The notes beneath the pieces were generated by a model. That model made no database searches. It was not told where the DNA came from and saw nothing but the letters and a program-made list of their open reading frames with translations. DNA of 64,000 nt, from assembly GCA_020058085.1 (NCBI GenBank), contig JAGVER010000005.1, positions 2,743 to 66,742 on the forward strand. The letters are read 5' to 3'. Below, in pieces: positions 30,935 through 53,537 of this stretch (positions are counted from its first letter, which is position 1; every line of letters starts with the position of its first letter). Source of the stretch: Candidatus Omnitrophota bacterium (GTDB lineage: Bacteria; Omnitrophota; Gorgyraeia; Gygaellales; Profunditerraquicolaceae). The translations under genes and the position numbers were made by a program.

Positions 30935-30948
30935 TAATCAATAGATTA

Positions 30949-31149
30949 ATCTTCAGGGCAGGGTGGAATTCCCGACCGGCGGTTGCGCAGAAGCGCACAC
31001 CGACGCTTCCTTTAGCGTTGGGTGAAAAGTCCGCGAGCTCTTAACGAAAGTTAGAGCATGAACCGGTGAGACTCCGGTACCGATGGTAGCGCACAGGCGC
31101 ATACTAACCTATCCTATTAGGTTGGGTAACAGTCCAGATGAAAGAAGAT
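30949..31149 (+). ncRNA. FMN riboswitch (RFN element) with expanded peripheral stems
   Basis: P1 is atcttc/gaagat. Conserved cores are cagggcagggtggaattcccgaccggcgg, aaaagtccgcgagc, accggtgagactccggtaccgatgg and aacagtccagatgaaagaaga. It lies upstream of ribBA. Confidence 0.92.
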
Positions 31150-31160
31150 GTTTACACTTA

Positions 31161-36007: not shown

Positions 36008-36081
36008 CGGGGCGTGGCTCAGTTTGGTAGAGCGCTTGGTTCGGGACCAAGAGGCCGACAGTTCGAATCTGTCCGCCCCGA
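36008..36081 (+). tRNA. tRNA-Pro (anticodon CGG), CCA not encoded
   Basis: Acceptor stem cggggcg/cgccccg, D-arm gctcagtttggtagagc, anticodon stem cttgg/ccaag with loop ttCGGga, T-arm gacag-ttcgaat-ctgtc. Confidence 0.9.
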
Positions 36082-38351: not shown

Positions 38352-38842
38352 TGCGCAAGTCGTTTATTTATATTCTCGGATTAATCATGTTAATGAATTT
38401 AGTGGGTTGCGAAGCATTCGTGCGCAAGTTTACCCGCAAATCTAAAAAGGAGAAGGCTCCGGAAGAGATGGTCATTGCCCCTGAAGAGTGGAAGGGGCCA
38501 AAAATGACTAAGGAGCAGATGTATAGGCAATATTATACCTTTTGGAAATCTTGGCAGGATGAATTAATTAGCGCCTTATCGCAGAGTAGCGTGTCTTTAA
38601 AGAAAAAGAATGATTGCGCAGAACAGGCAGTTAAGAATCTTTTAGGGATGAGGACGATGTTAAATGAGACCGAGCAAAAACAATTGGATGTTTATCTGAA
38701 GCAGATGACTGATTTAAAGAACGCAATCAAGTCCGATATCTATGGAGCGTCCAATAATTCTAACCGTCAGGATGCCGAAAGAGTAAGAAGGAACATACTC
38801 CAGAGGTATTCTTACAGCGATATTAAGGATGATCTAAAATGA
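38348..38842 (+). CDS. Hypothetical lipoprotein
   Basis: Lipobox LMNLVGC. Confidence 0.55.
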   Translation: MMRKSFIYILGLIMLMNLVGCEAFVRKFTRKSKKEKAPEEMVIAPEEWKGPKMTKEQMYRQYYTFWKSWQDELISALSQSSVSLKKKNDCAEQAVKNLLGMRTMLNETEQKQLDVYLKQMTDLKNAIKSDIYGASNNSNRQDAERVRRNILQRYSYSDIKDDLK

Positions 38843-39450
38843 TTCTGGAGACAGTTTCTGTAGGGGCAATGGGAGTAAATTGTTATATACTTGCCTCAAA
38901 AGAAGGCTCTAAGGCTATTATTATTGATCCCGGAGATCAGGAACGTAAGATTCGGCAAGTATTAGATAAACATAAATTAGTGCCGGGTTTTATTATTAAT
39001 ACCCATGGACATTATGATCATATCGGGGCAGATGATAAATTTAATGTGCTAGTATATGCGCATAAGCTCGAAGTACCTTTATTAAAAGAGCCGATGCTTA
39101 ATCTCTCCGGTTTGTTTTCTCTGCCCTATCAAGTCAAATCAGAGGTTAAGTCTTTAGAAGATGGAGAAAGAGTCACTTTGGATGATATTCAGTTAAAGGT
39201 GATACATACTCCCGGGCATACTCGTGGAGGAATAACCTTATTATTAGAAAAGCCAGTAGATAAAGTTGCTTTTACCGGGGATACATTATTTTGTCAGGGG
39301 ATCGGCAGGTCGGATTTATCCGGAGGAGATGAAGAGTTGTTAATTAAATCCATAAAAGAGAAGCTCTTTACCTTACCTTCTGAAACTAAGATCTATCCCG
39401 GGCATGGAGCGTCTTCTACGATAGGAGAAGAGAAGAATAATTTAAGATGA
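38839..39450 (+). CDS. MBL-fold metallo-hydrolase
   Basis: NTHGHYDHIG motif, later HTPGHT and GD..F. Confidence 0.85.
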   Translation: MILETVSVGAMGVNCYILASKEGSKAIIIDPGDQERKIRQVLDKHKLVPGFIINTHGHYDHIGADDKFNVLVYAHKLEVPLLKEPMLNLSGLFSLPYQVKSEVKSLEDGERVTLDDIQLKVIHTPGHTRGGITLLLEKPVDKVAFTGDTLFCQGIGRSDLSGGDEELLIKSIKEKLFTLPSETKIYPGHGASSTIGEEKNNLR

Positions 39451-47271: not shown

Positions 47272-48222
47272 ATGAAAATCATTTACGGAATAAATAAGAT
47301 TGAAGAATTTAAGAAGCCTGTTTTGGCGATGGGGGTCTTTGATGGAGTCCATCGCGGGCATAAGAAGATACTTAAGGCGGCTGTGGAGAAAGCGCGTAAG
47401 ATTAGAGGCACGAGCATTGCCTTGACTTTCTGGCCGCATCCGCAGAAAGAAGGGAACCTTTATTCTTTGGAGCATAGATTACGGCTTATCGCCGAGCTAG
47501 GGATTGATCTCTGCATTGTGGTTAATTTTAGCCGGAATTTTGCCGAGATTAAGGCGCAGGATTTTATAAAAGATATCTTAGTTGATAAAATATGCGCAGA
47601 ATATATTTATGTGGGCAATGATTTTAAGTTTGGCAAGAATGCGGAAGGCGACCTTGTCCTTTTAGATAATTTAGGCAGGATTTATGGTTTTAAAGCAAAG
47701 GGCCTTAAGATAATTAAGTCCGGAAGTAAACCTGTAAGTAGTACGTTAATCCGTAGCCTTGTCAAAAAAGGCGAGATAAGAAAAGCGCAAGGGCTCTTGC
47801 ACCGGCCGGTAAGTATTCTTGGGACTGTAATAAGGGGAACAACTTTGGGCAGGATATTAGGTTTTCCGACGGCAAATATAGATCCGCATCATGAAGTAAT
47901 CCCGGCAACGGGAATCTATGCTGTAAAAGTTGTTCTTGGAAAAAATAAATTAAAAGGCGTTTGTTACATTGGCATAAGGCCAACCATTAAAACAAGGGGA
48001 CGGTTCTATTTTTCTAAAAATAGAACCGTCCCCATTGTTTTAAAAAATAACAAGGTGAATGTCGAAGTTTACATATTTAATTTTAAGAAAAATATTTACG
48101 GAAAATATCTGGAGATCCAATTTGTGAAAAAGATCCGTTCGGACAGAAAATTTCCTTCTTTAACGCTCTTAGCCAATCAGATCAAAAAAGACGTAGCCTC
48201 TGCAAAGAAAATCCTCTCCTAA
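47272..48222 (+). CDS. ribF: Bifunctional riboflavin kinase / FMN adenylyltransferase
   Basis: GVFDGVHRGH, FWPHP, GFPTANI and IRSDRKFPSL motifs. Confidence 0.92.
   Translation: MKIIYGINKIEEFKKPVLAMGVFDGVHRGHKKILKAAVEKARKIRGTSIALTFWPHPQKEGNLYSLEHRLRLIAELGIDLCIVVNFSRNFAEIKAQDFIKDILVDKICAEYIYVGNDFKFGKNAEGDLVLLDNLGRIYGFKAKGLKIIKSGSKPVSSTLIRSLVKKGEIRKAQGLLHRPVSILGTVIRGTTLGRILGFPTANIDPHHEVIPATGIYAVKVVLGKNKLKGVCYIGIRPTIKTRGRFYFSKNRTVPIVLKNNKVNVEVYIFNFKKNIYGKYLEIQFVKKIRSDRKFPSLTLLANQIKKDVASAKKILS
47989..48041. repeat. Perfect 18-bp-arm palindrome (extended to ~25 bp) lying in-frame inside ribF
   Basis: ggggacggttctattttt (47996-48013), ct, aaaaatagaaccgtcccc (48016-48033). It is flanked by aaaacaa/ttgtttt. 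It encodes ...KTRGRFYFSKNRTVPIVLK..., which sits between conserved RibF blocks (GIRPT ... VEVYIFNF). Confidence 0.9.
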
Positions 48223-50112: not shown

Positions 50113-51828
50113 GTGCATATAAGTAACTATCGCCGAAAGTGCGAGGCGGTATTCCTATTTCTCCTTCTATTTTTAATCTTCTGCATTCTTAGATTACTCT
50201 ATATTCAAATCTTCCGCTCGAATTATCTAGCGGAAATTGCCAATAAGCAGCATAATCTATTTGCGGAGCTGGAACCATTTCGCGGCATAATTTATGATAT
50301 TAACTTTAAGCCGCAAACTCTTAATCTTCCTGCGGATTCGCTCTATGCTTCCCCGAACATGATGACAGAGAAGGATAAAGAAGCAGCTATCTTTCAACTA
50401 TCTGGTATATTAAATTTTAGCAAGGATTATTTAAGGGGTAGGTTATATCGCAAAAAATCTTTTATTTGGCTTGCGCGCAAAATAACTCCGGAACAAGCGC
50501 AGGCAATTAAGAAGCTAAAGATTAAAAGTTTAGGTTTCCTAAGGGAGAGCAAACGCAGTTATCCTAATACTTATCTGGCCAGTCAGATTATAGGATTTGC
50601 CGGGATTGACAATAGAGGATTAGAGGGGATCGAGCTTTATCTGGATAGATACTTAATGGGTGAGCCGGGGTGGGGAATATTTCTAAGGGACGCGCGGCAG
50701 AAGAGGTTGGATATTTACCAAAAAATGGTTTTGCCTAAAGATGGCATGGATGTTGTTTTAACTATTGATCAGGTGGTACAATATATCGCTGAGAGGGAAC
50801 TGGATAAGGCGTATAAGACTCACAATGCCAAAGGCGCAAGTATTATTGTTATGGATCCGCATACTGGTAGGATCCTGGCTTTAGCTAATCGGCCTACTTA
50901 TAACTTAAATGAGTATAGCAATGTTAGTAAAGATCAGACACGCAACCGCGCGATATGCGATTTATTCGAGCCGGGTTCAGTATTTAAGATAGTTACTGCT
51001 TCTGCAGCTTTGGAAGAGAAGAGGATAACCGAGGAGGATAAGATATTTTGCGAAAATGGATCTTATCGCGTAGCTAATCATACTTTACATGACCATACTT
51101 CGCATGGGTGGCTAACGTTTCGGGAGGTAATCGAGCAGTCAAGTAATATTGGTACTACTAAAATTGCCCAGATGCTTGGTCCGGAAATAGTCTATAAATA
51201 TGTAAGGCTTTTCGGTTTTGGCTCTAAGCTGGGGATCGACCTGCAGGGAGAGATATCTGGAATGATTAAGGAGCCGCGTTTCTGGTCTAAGACATCTATA
51301 GGCGCTGTGCCGATAGGGCAGGAAGTAGGAGTAACTACCCTGCAATTAGCTAGTGCGCTCTCCGTTATTGCGAACGGTGGCCAATTAATGAAGCCTTATA
51401 TTATAGAGGAGATTCGTGATAAACAGGGAAGGGTTATCAAGCGGACATCCCCTACCTTAATACGTAAAGTTATCTCTTTAGATACTGCGGCGCGAATATC
51501 TAAGATGCTTACCGGAGTAGTTGAGGAAGGGACGGGCAGAATGGCTCAGATTCCCGGGCTTACTTCTGCAGGCAAGACCGGAACTGCCCAGAAACTAGAT
51601 GCTAATGGCGCATACTCGCATGATAAGTTTGTCGCTTCATTTATTGGTTTTGCTCCGGTAGAAGACCCGGTGGTGACAATTGTAGTTTCTCTTGATGAAC
51701 CTCATCCATATTATTTTGGAGGCGTGGTTGCTGCTCCGGTATTTAGAAATGTAGCTGCCGATGTAGTGCGATACTTAAAGACAAAGCAGTCTTTAGATAC
51801 CCAGATGAACTCACTGAGTCATCAATAA
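50113..51828 (+). CDS. ftsI: Peptidoglycan D,D-transpeptidase FtsI (class B PBP)
   Basis: GTG start, N-terminal TM, and SxxK (GSVFK), SSN and KTGT motifs. Confidence 0.9.
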   Translation: MHISNYRRKCEAVFLFLLLFLIFCILRLLYIQIFRSNYLAEIANKQHNLFAELEPFRGIIYDINFKPQTLNLPADSLYASPNMMTEKDKEAAIFQLSGILNFSKDYLRGRLYRKKSFIWLARKITPEQAQAIKKLKIKSLGFLRESKRSYPNTYLASQIIGFAGIDNRGLEGIELYLDRYLMGEPGWGIFLRDARQKRLDIYQKMVLPKDGMDVVLTIDQVVQYIAERELDKAYKTHNAKGASIIVMDPHTGRILALANRPTYNLNEYSNVSKDQTRNRAICDLFEPGSVFKIVTASAALEEKRITEEDKIFCENGSYRVANHTLHDHTSHGWLTFREVIEQSSNIGTTKIAQMLGPEIVYKYVRLFGFGSKLGIDLQGEISGMIKEPRFWSKTSIGAVPIGQEVGVTTLQLASALSVIANGGQLMKPYIIEEIRDKQGRVIKRTSPTLIRKVISLDTAARISKMLTGVVEEGTGRMAQIPGLTSAGKTGTAQKLDANGAYSHDKFVASFIGFAPVEDPVVTIVVSLDEPHPYYFGGVVAAPVFRNVAADVVRYLKTKQSLDTQMNSLSHQ

Positions 51829-51830
51829 AT

Positions 51831-51949
51831 AATGGTCACATTGGCTGAGCTGATTTTGGTGCGAGACAAGGAACGAGGACGCAGGCGTAGCCTTCTGCTA
51901 CGCCAAGGACGAGTGACGCAGTCAGAGCCCAAAATCAGCTCAGCCCATT
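51831..51949 (+). repeat. GC-rich long hairpin element B (ftsI-murE spacer)
   Basis: Perfect 17-bp arms ggctgagctgattttgg (51843-59)/ccaaaatcagctcagcc (51929-45), and an apical hairpin ggcgtagc-cttct-gctacgcc (51884-51904). Confidence 0.8.
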
Positions 51950-51962
51950 AAATAGAATTAGC

Positions 51963-52070
51963 AGGGGAAGCCCGCCTTTCGGCCGTCTGCGGCGTTGCTC
52001 CTCCTCGGCGTAGTGCTTCGACTACGCCATCGTCGTCGCGCCTTGCATACGGCCTAAACTCGGGCTTTCA
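51963..52070 (+). repeat. GC-rich long hairpin element C (ftsI-murE spacer)
   Basis: Helices are gaagcccg/cgggcttt (G.U on the plus strand), ggccgt/acggcc, and the apical ggcgtagt-gcttcg-actacgcc (52007-28). It shares the ggcgtag apex with element B. Confidence 0.75.
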
Positions 52071-52100
52071 ATGTGCCCATTATTTGTTGATGACTCAGTA

Positions 52101-53537
52101 ATGCAAATAGAAGACCTCATTAAATTAATTAGGGCTCGTAAGATTAACGGCATAAGTTGTAATTCTAAGGCCGTGAAGAAAGGTTCTCTCTTTGTGGCGG
52201 TAAAAGGCGCGAAAGAGGACGGAAGCAGGTTTATTGATCAGGCGATATCAAGAGGCGCAAAGATTATAGTTTACGGATTAGGTTTAAGAAAGAATATAAA
52301 GAGAGGTGTTTCTTTGGTAAAAGTTAAAGATACACGTCTGGCGATAGCGCAATTATCTTCGGAATTCTACGGTAATCCTTCTGAACAATTAAAGATTATA
52401 GGAGTTACCGGGACTAACGGTAAAACTACGATTACCTATATCTTAGAGGCCATACTGAAGGAAGCGGGATCTAAGGTAGCAGTTATAGGCACGGTAAATT
52501 ATCGTTTTAAGGATATTATTCTGCCGGCTAGAAATACTACCCCTGGGCCGTTGGAACTTCAGTCAATGATGGCAAGTATGGTTAAAGAGAGGATTGATTA
52601 TTGTGCAATCGAAGTTTCTTCTCACGCCTTGGAGCAGGGGAGAGTTTTGGGTATAAATTTTCAATCCGCGATATTTACTAATCTCGCTCAAGATCATCTT
52701 GATTACCATAAGACCATAGGAAGTTATTTTTTGGCGAAAACTAAGCTTTTTAAGGGGCTATCCCCGCGTTCTTTTGCTGTTTTGAATTATGATGATAAAT
52801 ATTTTTCGTCGCTCAAAAAATTAACTAAGGCAAAAGTAATCACTTATGGGTTAAGCGTTAAATCTCAGGTGAGAGCCGTAAATATAAAATATGGTTTAAG
52901 TTCTACAGAGTTCTTACTATTTTTTCCTAAAGGAGAGATGGAGATAAAAACCCGTCTTATTGGCAAGCATAATCTCTATAATCTGTTGGCTGCATTTAGT
53001 TGGGCTTATCAGGAAGACATAGATTTAAAAGATATAAAGACTGCACTAGAAAAATTCTCTTTTGTGCCAGGCAGGCTTGAAAGAATAGAATGCAAAAAAG
53101 GATTTTATGTATTTGTGGATTACGCCCATACCGAAGATGCCTTAAAAAATATCCTCCTTTTTTTAAGAGGTTTATCGCCGAGAAAAATTATCACTGTTTT
53201 TGGTTGCGGTGGAGAGAGGGATAAGCTTAAGCGTCCAAAGATGGGGAGAGTAGCAACCGAGTTATCAGATTTTGTGGTGATTACGGATGACAATCCGCGT
53301 TCTGAAAAATCCGAAAATATAATTAGTGATATAAAAAAAGGGACAAAGAAAGATAATTATTCTGTTTTCCCAGCTAGAAAAGCGGCGATAAAAAACGCAA
53401 TATCTATGGCGGTTAAGGGAGATATTGTGGTAATTGCTGGTAAGGGGCATGAGGATTATCAGGTGCTTGGGGATGGTGTTATACATTTTGATGATCGGGA
53501 GGAGGTAAGGTTATGTTTAAAATCCCTGAATTATTAA
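52101..53537 (+). CDS. murE: UDP-N-acetylmuramoyl-L-alanyl-D-glutamate--2,6-diaminopimelate ligase
   Basis: GVTGTNGKTT, and DNPR at ITDDNPRSE. ATG 52101 is preferred because ATG 52071 lies within or next to hairpin element C. Confidence 0.9.
   Translation: MQIEDLIKLIRARKINGISCNSKAVKKGSLFVAVKGAKEDGSRFIDQAISRGAKIIVYGLGLRKNIKRGVSLVKVKDTRLAIAQLSSEFYGNPSEQLKIIGVTGTNGKTTITYILEAILKEAGSKVAVIGTVNYRFKDIILPARNTTPGPLELQSMMASMVKERIDYCAIEVSSHALEQGRVLGINFQSAIFTNLAQDHLDYHKTIGSYFLAKTKLFKGLSPRSFAVLNYDDKYFSSLKKLTKAKVITYGLSVKSQVRAVNIKYGLSSTEFLLFFPKGEMEIKTRLIGKHNLYNLLAAFSWAYQEDIDLKDIKTALEKFSFVPGRLERIECKKGFYVFVDYAHTEDALKNILLFLRGLSPRKIITVFGCGGERDKLKRPKMGRVATELSDFVVITDDNPRSEKSENIISDIKKGTKKDNYSVFPARKAAIKNAISMAVKGDIVVIAGKGHEDYQVLGDGVIHFDDREEVRLCLKSLNY

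Follow-up and report, generated by a model that had tools for sequence, protein, structure and literature searches.

The closest known counterparts of the element described here are the TA-flanked, stem-forming MITEs Correia/NEMIS and ERIC/YPAL. In Neisseria, Correia/NEMIS elements duplicate a TA target, carry terminal inverted repeats (TIRs) that pair into a long stem in the transcript, insert beside genes and share their transcripts; in the 155-bp Correia form every frame is closed by stop codons (PMC2229807, PMC10969869). ERIC/IRU (RU-1) and YPAL (RU-2), from enterobacteria and Yersinia, have TA ends, are palindromic and occupy transcribed intergenic regions, and what they do to mRNA varies with their orientation and with whether ribosomes translate into them. 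The Correia TIR stems are cleaved by RNase III, and in ERIC an exposure to RNase E depends on orientation and on ribosomes (PMC10969869, PMC2229807). Stowaway-type MITEs, mobilised by Tc1/mariner/IS630, combine TA duplication with short TIRs and have no transposase of their own. Translational coupling by termination and reinitiation, for its part, requires gene overlaps or very short spacers (PMC10666635, PMC6728339). Here we describe a mobile element that shares the target, the repeats, the stem and the gene-adjacent position of these MITEs, and that has settled in just such overlaps. Its best overall explanation, and in our view a probable one, is a MITE adapted to operon junctions by a relay cistron that preserves translational coupling.

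The element lies between ftsI and murE in the window, the whole 64,000-nt stretch of Candidatus Omnitrophota DNA that was analysed, where the neighbouring ORFs are rsmH, ftsL, ftsI (SpoVD/PBP type), murE, murF and mraY. A sequence-only reading of this DNA had seen at the junction two adjacent, long, GC-rich hairpins spanning 51831-52070, and had taken them for related copies that stand out from an AT-rich genome. The hairpins are real: the plus-strand RNA fold of 51825-52075 reaches -117.7 kcal/mol, against -81.5 +/- 4.8 in dinucleotide shuffles (z = -7.55, with 0 of 200 shuffles as good), and the minus-strand fold of the same region reaches -111.9 (z = -5.83). The contrast in composition holds as well, since the GC content is 59-64% in the hairpins and 53.7% in the element, against 40.1% in the 64-kb window. 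The apical motif GGCGTAG..CTACGCC occurs exactly twice in the 64 kb (0 expected), once in hairpin A and once in hairpin B. In fact, the left half of the hairpin region aligns over its full length with the reverse complement of the right half (~62% identity), so hairpin B is an inverted paralogue of A; the two are indeed related copies, though inverted. The interior of A holds three tandem G.A/A.G oppositions (5'-GA-3'/5'-GA-3') between Watson-Crick pairs. Where the first reading fell short was in the outer limits. The refined hairpins (Table 1) lie inside the span first given, but that span is too narrow and misses a 31-nt inverted repeat (51813-51843 / 52069-52099, 94% complementary) whose arms embrace the two hairpins and run over the stop codon of ftsI and the murE start given by the ORF finder.

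Homologues of FtsI place the DNA in a Candidatus Omnitrophota MAG, while exact look-ups of the window's FtsI, MraY and P0001 matched no record. Comparison with the dcw clusters of relatives, which the sequence-only reading had called for, reveals what happened at this junction. In L001 (FtsI 94% identical) and in L002-L004 (FtsI 88% identical), the 574-aa ftsI and the 478-aa murE share 23 nt and no sequence separates them, which agrees with the expectation that this junction is normally tight or overlapping. Aligned with these four loci, the window has 286 extra nt (51814-52099) between ..GATGAACT(T/C)A and AATGCAAATA..; this is the net gain at the junction, where 287 nt are expected for the element plus one TA. 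In the window copy both ends are a little degenerate: CA stands at the left, and one A is missing at the right. The element begins within the last ftsI codons and ends 2 nt ahead of the real murE ATG, and the FtsI C-terminus now reads ..NSLSHQ (571 aa) where the relatives have ..NLNANKRSR (574 aa). On this alignment the true start of murE is ATG 52101, and the in-frame ATG 52071 chosen by the ORF finder sits inside the element. In the Hainich H41 lineage (L005-L007), the ftsI-murE junction holds instead a 13-nt CCGAGGCATTAAT, a scar that by its sequence is a remnant of the element's left end. The FtsI identities of the close relatives are star-like, at 91-94%, a pattern compatible with one shared insertion or with separate ones behind the window copy and the Hainich scar. 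We are highly confident that the two hairpins form one copy of a MITE family, inserted in the 23-nt ftsI/murE overlap.

Table 1. Features of the ftsI-murE junction, numbered along the window
Feature	Position	Strand	Basis or remark
ftsI (PBP transpeptidase), 571 aa	50113..51828	+	NCBIfam/PBP matches
ftsI final 5 codons + stop (L S H Q *)	51814-51828	+	element-derived, replacing ancestral 8-codon tail
left flanking dinucleotide CA	51812..51813	.	degenerate copy of the TA target-site duplication
element core, 285 bp, CTGAG...CTCAG	51814..52098	+	absent in L001-L004 at the same junction; blastn family
left TIR, left arm of closing stem P1	51812..51842	+	inverted-repeat search, pair counts
left-arm codons	TGA 51815-17, TAA 51826-28 (ftsI stop), TAA 51830-32, ATG 51832-34	+	
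hairpin A	51843..51945	+	17-bp lower stem, purine-rich interior, apical stem GGCGTAGC/GCTACGCC
AT-rich linker between hairpins A and B	51946..51965	+	length varies over the family
in-frame TAA in linker of window copy	51949-51951	+	breaks the pass-through frame
hairpin B	51966..52069	+	pyrimidine-rich interior, apical stem GGCGTAGT/ACTACGCC; inverted paralogue of A
right TIR, right arm of P1	52070..52100	+	ends CTCAG, then TA duplication (52099-52100)
relay frame, part 1	51832..51951	+	ATG, 39 codons, then TAA
relay frame, part 2	51952..52101	+	open 49 codons; TAA 52099-52101 overlaps murE ATG as TAATG
murE, 478 aa, start ATG 52101	52101..53537	+	NCBIfam MurE; relatives' aligned start MQIKDL

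This copy is far from alone. A search for the ggcgtag-apex hairpin family, another suggestion of the first reading, was rewarded with recurrences in Omnitrophota MAGs and in metagenomes. A 21-nt pattern from hairpin A has exact matches in 12 contigs of 9 species-representative Omnitrophota MAGs, and a 20-nt pattern matched 62 metagenome contigs, 60 of them truly; the pattern matches in L026 and L030 are chance hits in GC-rich DNA. With blastn we collected 81 copies, 58 of which are near full length, at 77-97% identity to the window copy, and these resolve into 46 distinct full-length sequences of 282-303 bp. L002 has the apex motif twice, in full copies that follow an unrelated gene and murG. 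Contigs often break off within the element, the usual effect of a repeat on assembly. In a divergent relative, L082, the hairpin core is retained, its stems altered by compensatory changes, and the unit is bounded by terminal repeats of 25-30 nt (TTGATGTTCGCATAAG) that are unrelated to those of the main family and are again flanked by TA.

So far the family has been seen only in Candidatus Omnitrophota. An nhmmer profile search of Omnitrophota loci added no further diverged copies, a scan of viral contigs and BLAST against plasmids and phages returned nothing similar, and the Rfam, plasmid and phage searches gave no sequence similarity to any described family. Since the searchable literature yielded neither a description of the element family nor a report of any MITE in the Omnitrophota phylum, the 285-bp family is apparently undescribed.

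The ends of the element suggest how it moves. Copies are laid out as TA-CTGAG-(8 variable nt)-AAATAATGRNCACATTG ... CAATGTGCCCATTATTT-(8 variable nt)-CTCAG-TA, with terminal inverted repeats in all 46 full copies and TA on both sides in 32 of them. A filled site in L020 reads ..GCTAACT-TA-(element)-TA-ATTCCC and the corresponding empty site in L018/L072 reads ..GCTAACT-TA-ATTCCC, with a single TA; the two differ by exactly the element plus one TA. In silico deletion of the element and one TA at the L002 and L006 insertions brings back gene overlaps of the ATGA and TAATG kinds. Thus, the TA duplication at filled and empty sites makes the family a TA-duplicating MITE, and the other hallmarks of MITEs are present too: terminal inverted repeats, a small size without transposase, and dispersed, polymorphic copies. 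The MITE-like insertion that the first reading had listed among several options is therefore what stands, given the absence from the relatives' junction, 44 distinct insertion sites among the 81 copies, the inverted repeats and the TA duplication.

Such a target duplication points to an IS630/Tc1-mariner-type transposase, a TA-specific DDE enzyme that presumably moves the element in trans. Duplication of a TA dinucleotide, as in Stowaway-like elements, is seen also in the L082 subfamily. The element itself encodes no transposase: its sole ORF has no Pfam match, no long homologues and no conserved peptide, and the idea that this ORF is a remnant of a parent transposase found no support, none of its 101 homologous clusters exceeding 142 aa. 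A search of 582 kb of Omnitrophota loci for a partner or parent IS gave no extra TIR pairs and no autonomous element, only scars. Group I and II introns and ribozymes were also set aside, since no model matches, the fold is one of simple rods and the TA duplication speaks for cut-and-paste transposition of DNA.

What, then, does the element do inside an operon? Its copies sit at gene junctions in a strikingly regular manner. A co-oriented gene starts within 25 nt of the right end at 36 of the 44 sites, and within 7 nt at 26. Candidates for the antisense arrangement number 0-3, and all 3 also have a sense gene (binomial p = 4e-8). At about 28 sites the upstream ORF extends into the element, where it ends at TGA (2), TAA (13) or TGA (33), numbered from the left end, all three frames being closed within the first 35 nt; at 6 further sites the native upstream stop directly precedes the TA. 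Because the ends are near-symmetrical and the TA is palindromic, DDE insertion should not pick an orientation relative to genes. Insertion alone predicts no bias and yet the copies are biased, which implies that the interior of the element is sensitive to orientation. The sense bias could instead reflect the direction of replication, which on the contigs examined is inseparable from gene direction.

An orientation bias relative to replication is what a hairpin repeat moved by a single-strand HUH/tyrosine transposase (REP/REPIN + RAYT or IS200/IS605-derived) would naturally give, and the two large hairpins would suit such a repeat as well. Nevertheless, REP/REPIN and IS200/IS605-derived elements, built on short REP palindromes or subterminal hairpins, have neither terminal inverted repeats nor a target duplication, the Omnitrophota element has both (31-nt TIRs and a duplicated TA), and its 285 bp far exceed a REP unit; this origin is very improbable.

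The fold shows strong covariation. RNAalifold on the 46 sequences gives a three-way junction made of a closing stem, P1, formed by the terminal repeats, and of the rods A and B. With P1 extended to 30 pairs, standard pairs fill 97.9% of the cells, and both sides have changed in 33 of 98 pairs, where shuffles give 14.4 +/- 1.8 and slid partners 5-7. Seventeen of the 30 P1 pairs carry such both-side changes, and the predicted P1 duplex is 31-33 bp long. Covariation is concentrated in the 8-nt block of P1, in the apical stems and in the lower stem of A, and compensatory change reaches as far as the terminal CTGAG/CTCAG and the flanking TA; elsewhere the fold, including the purine-rich interior of A, is nearly invariant. 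Pairing is maintained by compensatory changes, in an element that folds as DNA or RNA.

The sequence-only reading had gone further and argued, from mismatches that resolve as G.U on the plus strand, that selection acts on the RNA. This argument does not survive comparison with the family. The G.U that it cited (gaagcccg/cgggcttt) is private to the window copy, the pair being G-C in 44 of the 46 copies and G-U in 1. Over the variable-site cells of the 46 copies G.U occurs 77 times and A.C 58 times, mean MFEs are -150.8 (plus strand) and -151.7 (minus strand), and of the 46 copies only 22 fold more stably as the plus strand. We therefore dropped the argument for RNA-specific selection on the symmetry of these measures; with no strand asymmetry, the pairing constraint may act on DNA or RNA. 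Attenuators, another of the early suggestions, found no footing either. A promoter and terminator scan of 51000-53000 gave no terminator-like site on the sense strand, so the GC-rich hairpin followed by a U-run that marks an intrinsic terminator or attenuator is missing from the transcribed strand, and Rfam 15 has no gathering-level match in the region to any structured RNA, the matches at E <= 10 being chance hits to miRNA and lncRNA models.

These results bear on a different role, in which the host would have co-opted the element as a cis-acting RNA. By analogy with Correia and ERIC, P1 and the rods could serve as RNase III/RNase E sites or as stability determinants that uncouple or tune the expression of the flanking genes, and a downstream ribosome-binding site could be masked until upstream translation melts P1. 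P1 is indeed long, near-perfect and maintained by covariation, and every upstream stop codon falls within its left arm. In about 20 of the 46 copies the right arm carries a GGAG, placed 7-12 nt ahead of the next start and opposite a CCTCC. The hairpin core is conserved in L082 despite entirely different terminal repeats, and processing of this kind is published in the form of RNase III cleavage for Correia and RNase E exposure for ERIC (PMC10969869, PMC2229807). Against this role stand the lack of a G.U excess over A.C and of a stability difference between the strands, the absence of an Rfam match and of a sense-strand terminator, and an open reading frame with indels summing to 3n that it leaves unexplained. 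We consider it improbable. Masking of the Shine-Dalgarno sequence as the sole mechanism is further weakened by numbers: the GGAG is present in only those ~20 right arms, and a recognisable Shine-Dalgarno sequence precedes only 18 of the 51 genes of the window.

The reading frame is a further unexpected feature of the family. An ATG at element position 19, within the conserved AAATAATG of the left repeat and 3 nt past the TAA of position 13, opens a frame that in most copies runs for 88-89 codons through hairpins A and B and ends at CAG-TA(A/G), a stop built on the duplicated TA. Among the ATG-bearing sense copies 34 of 40 keep at least 80 codons of this frame, against 4 of 43 for the equivalent antisense frame. 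The ATG is absent in 4 of 46 copies and the frame is broken in about 10, the window copy included. No Shine-Dalgarno sequence precedes the element ATG, itself base-paired in P1. In intact cases the relay stop lies -8 to +7 nt from the next start (21 of 26), 7 of them as TAATG or TGATG.

Gene callers take this frame for a gene, and it is tempting to see in it a real small protein, with the hairpins incidental. In the protein database, where the matches are ascertained for intact ORFs, it forms 101 clusters, nearly all of 83-95 aa and mostly of 88-90 aa, with none above 142 aa. Nonetheless, the 88-codon ORF has no match in Pfam, and its substitutions fall evenly over the codon positions (60/57/56), with no third-position bias; neither codon-position bias nor the amino-acid conservation of a small protein is seen. 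Between subfamilies the same nucleotides of the central parts are read in two or three frames, the N- and C-termini being common, and the sequence as a whole is a TA-flanked inverted-repeat unit at unrelated sites. A small-protein gene is thus very improbable.

If the peptide does not matter, is the frame open by accident? An ordinary selfish MITE would need no translational role. It would survive only between genes because the genome is very compact, its GC-rich hairpins would make the RNA inert by preventing Rho loading and RNase entry, and the open frame and the orientation would be by-products, for example the one of a master copy with an open frame, the other of a replication-linked insertion bias. 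Several observations are at ease with this account: MITEs typically show TA duplication, terminal inverted repeats and polymorphism (PMC2229807), the folding shows no strand asymmetry, the scarcity of Shine-Dalgarno sequences in the window suggests that initiation may be permissive, and the relay frame has only slightly fewer distinct stop-creating substitutions (6) than the 8.9 expected. In the window copy, moreover, a +1 indel at about 51940 perfects the lower stem of A and at the same time creates the linker TAA, so the frame is broken ahead of an essential gene, murE, and an intact relay is not indispensable.

The history of the frame over the family, however, is difficult to reconcile with a by-product. 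The relay frame has 20 stops summed over copies, whereas the two remaining sense frames have 207 and 146, a depletion of sixfold or more in exactly the frame that runs from the TIR ATG to the TA; the antisense frames have 91, 45 and 102. Of 42 copies 36 are intact, whereas randomly repositioned shared mutations leave 15.5 +/- 5.4, and 0 of 2000 simulations reach 36; this randomisation moves each shared substitution and indel, keeps which copies share each mutation, and ignores structural constraints on where substitutions can fall. Frameshifts have been compensated repeatedly: 11 of 18 indel haplotypes are net 3n, and among those made of several non-3n indels 8 of 11 sum to 3n. Taken at the level of the aligned copies, these comparisons show a frame kept open against substitutions and frameshifts while its peptide varies freely. 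Insertion alone, with near-symmetrical ends and a palindromic target, should not orient the element either. A purely selfish MITE is to us a rather unlikely explanation.

The relay cistron, to which we now return, would account for the tolerance of the element in tightly packed, translationally coupled operons. Omnitrophota genes are tightly packed and often overlap, and few of those in the window have a recognisable Shine-Dalgarno sequence, so termination-reinitiation coupling is probably important. We envision that a ribosome leaving the upstream gene would stop at the TGA (2), TAA (13) or TGA (33) of the element, no more than about 15 nt from the ATG (19), reinitiate at this ATG and translate across both hairpins. 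It would then terminate at CAG-TA(A/G), overlapping the next start or a few nt from it, and reinitiate a second time there! P1 and the GC-rich rods would keep the two ends of the element together, and they may also shield untranslated copies from Rho or RNases. The path of this ribosome is predicted to be obstructed by two rods of ~-50 kcal/mol each. In the window copy, murE could be reached by reinitiation, by melting of P1 by the ribosomes that terminate ftsI, or from the in-frame ATG 52071. A relay layout would at once explain why only the sense orientation occurs, why AAATAATG is invariant and why the indels obey a 3n rule. That the mechanism really operates seems to us, on sequence patterns, slightly less than an even call, and we stop short of asserting it. 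Somewhat more tentative still is the evolutionary scenario, that a MITE family may have evolved a self-contained relay cistron which hands ribosomes on and which let it colonise overlapping stop/start junctions in essential operons such as dcw. As a corollary of that tentative scenario, the GC-rich hairpin core might be a reusable 'stealth' module, common to subfamilies with unrelated terminal repeats such as L082.

If the relay is true, this transposon does not avoid genes but lives in compact, coupled operons by bringing along the signals to stop, restart and stop again, and mobile DNA would have found a new route to neutrality. The element would then be a natural experiment on relayed termination-reinitiation through very stable structure, 270 nt of it, and an off-the-shelf part for synthetic operons. 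The plain reading has its interest as well: a MITE family with no description found in the searchable literature, in a candidate phylum for which we found no reported MITE. In practice, the element breaks Omnitrophota metagenome assemblies and misleads gene callers: the start that they give murE is false, the FtsI tail comes out truncated, and ~100 clusters of 'hypothetical' 88-aa proteins arise. It also provides a presence/absence marker for strain-level population genetics of an uncultured phylum.

Mobile pairs of GC-rich hairpins in an AT-richer genome are known from quite another setting, the double-hairpin elements and GC clusters of fungal mitochondria, which in this respect resemble the Omnitrophota element. 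The host is unrelated, and we know of no TIR/TA architecture and no reading frame in them.

Set beside the bacterial families, the element combines familiar parts in an unfamiliar way. The Caulobacter CIR has an RNA model with independent long stem-loops at the 5' and 3' sides, joined by a linker (PMC2229807), much like rods A and B, but it is only partly MITE-like, has stops in six frames and a GANTC methylation motif, and no junction preference is described for it. The Rickettsia RPE, also a palindromic mobile repeat, survives in translated regions by virtue of an open frame (PMC2229807); it inserts in frame and joins the host protein, whereas the Omnitrophota element closes off the upstream protein and starts a frame of its own. 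Correia elements, 105-155 bp long, form a single stem-loop, while the Omnitrophota element has 285 bp, two GC-rich rods and a three-way junction, and in contrast to Correia it lies almost exclusively 0-16 nt before start codons, in one orientation, with a frame open from end to end. Both orientations are known for ERIC, whose published effect is destabilising, via RNase E, whereas our element is found in sense only, its frame forming a cistron complete in itself that starts at an ATG in the left repeat and stops on the target TA. Unlike in Stowaway-type MITEs, the terminal bases and the 8-nt block of the TIRs vary in a compensatory manner, which is unexpected for a transposase binding site. 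Thus, the Omnitrophota element is set apart from the known MITEs by its size, its GC-rich three-way junction, its sense placement, its compensatory terminal repeats and the frame that these repeats bound.

Three G.A/A.G oppositions in tandem, each flanked by single Watson-Crick pairs (CGAG opposite CGAG), make up the interior of hairpin A, and this interior shows no variation in 46 of 46 copies in A4, the alignment of distinct full-length elements. Its pyrimidine-rich complement is carried by hairpin B. This interior could be a protein-binding or a non-canonical helical motif. In a copy from a divergent subfamily (at the Omnitrophota locus L082), the hairpin core is the same as the main family's, with compensatory stem changes, while the 25-30 nt terminal repeats (TTGATGTTCGCATAAGTTATAGGAG) are unrelated. 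As in the main family, TA is found on both flanks of this copy, which also holds an 84-codon frame ending inside the right repeat. The hairpin core seems to be a module common to different sets of terminal inverted repeats.

Coordinates of element parts, of the divergent copy at L082 and of other features in the window
Feature	Position	A4 columns	Further details
8-nt block within terminal repeats	window 51819-51826 / 52086-52093	8-15 / 311-318	
Hairpin A interior	window 51871-51881 / 51921-51931	60-70 / 122-132	
Divergent element subfamily copy	L082:2975-3260		GCA_040960315.1
Near-perfect palindrome	window 47989-48040		25-nt arms, 2-nt gap (AAAACAAGGGGACGGTTCTATTTTT / AAAAATAGAACCGTCCCCATTGTTT)
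FMN riboswitch	window 30945-31153		plus strand; 85 bits
tRNA gene	window 36008-36081		plus strand

The near-perfect palindrome lies at the 3' end of a ribF-like ORF, upstream of mraZ, and is without relation to the MITE.

Window 38765-38886 is the empty counterpart of the insertion site at 466 in another Omnitrophota locus, L002, which holds a full element there. The empty site reads ..GATCTAAAATGATT.., with one TA and an ATGA overlap. What look like element scars are found elsewhere: a 13-nt left-end remnant (CCGAGGCATTAAT) at the ftsI-murE junction of the Hainich groundwater relative (L005:5903-5917; also L006 and L007), and, at L076:9755-9775, a solo left end (CTGAGGCATCAACAAATAATG) that runs straight into a lepA-like ATG. 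Both are consistent with loss of the DNA between the left repeat's TAATG and the one at the right junction.

In the Hainich relative, an element copy also stands between murF and ispD, mraY being absent from that place (L006:3490-5809; also L005 and L007). Either the locus was rearranged at the repeat or the assembly is chimeric. At L062:2099-2135, a partial second right end (..CCATTGATGGCTCAGTAAG) directly follows a full copy, suggesting that one element inserted next to or inside another, or that this end is a remnant.

Two further copies (L041:253-559 and L076:8809-9095) lack the terminal stop of the element frame, which is fused in-frame to the downstream gene, ftsA-like in L041 (508 codons) and cmk-like in L076 (309 codons). 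Hairpin A of the L041 copy carries a 21-nt insertion that preserves the frame.

Within the terminal repeats, the 8-nt block is hypervariable, yet its complementarity between the element ends is kept, as in the variants CATCAAT/ATTGATG, CCTCCGGT/ACCGGAGG and GGCCCCAAT/ATTGGGGCC. In the right arm, the block occupies the position where the Shine-Dalgarno sequence of the next gene would sit. Such a hypervariable, complementary block is not what one would expect of a transposase binding site.
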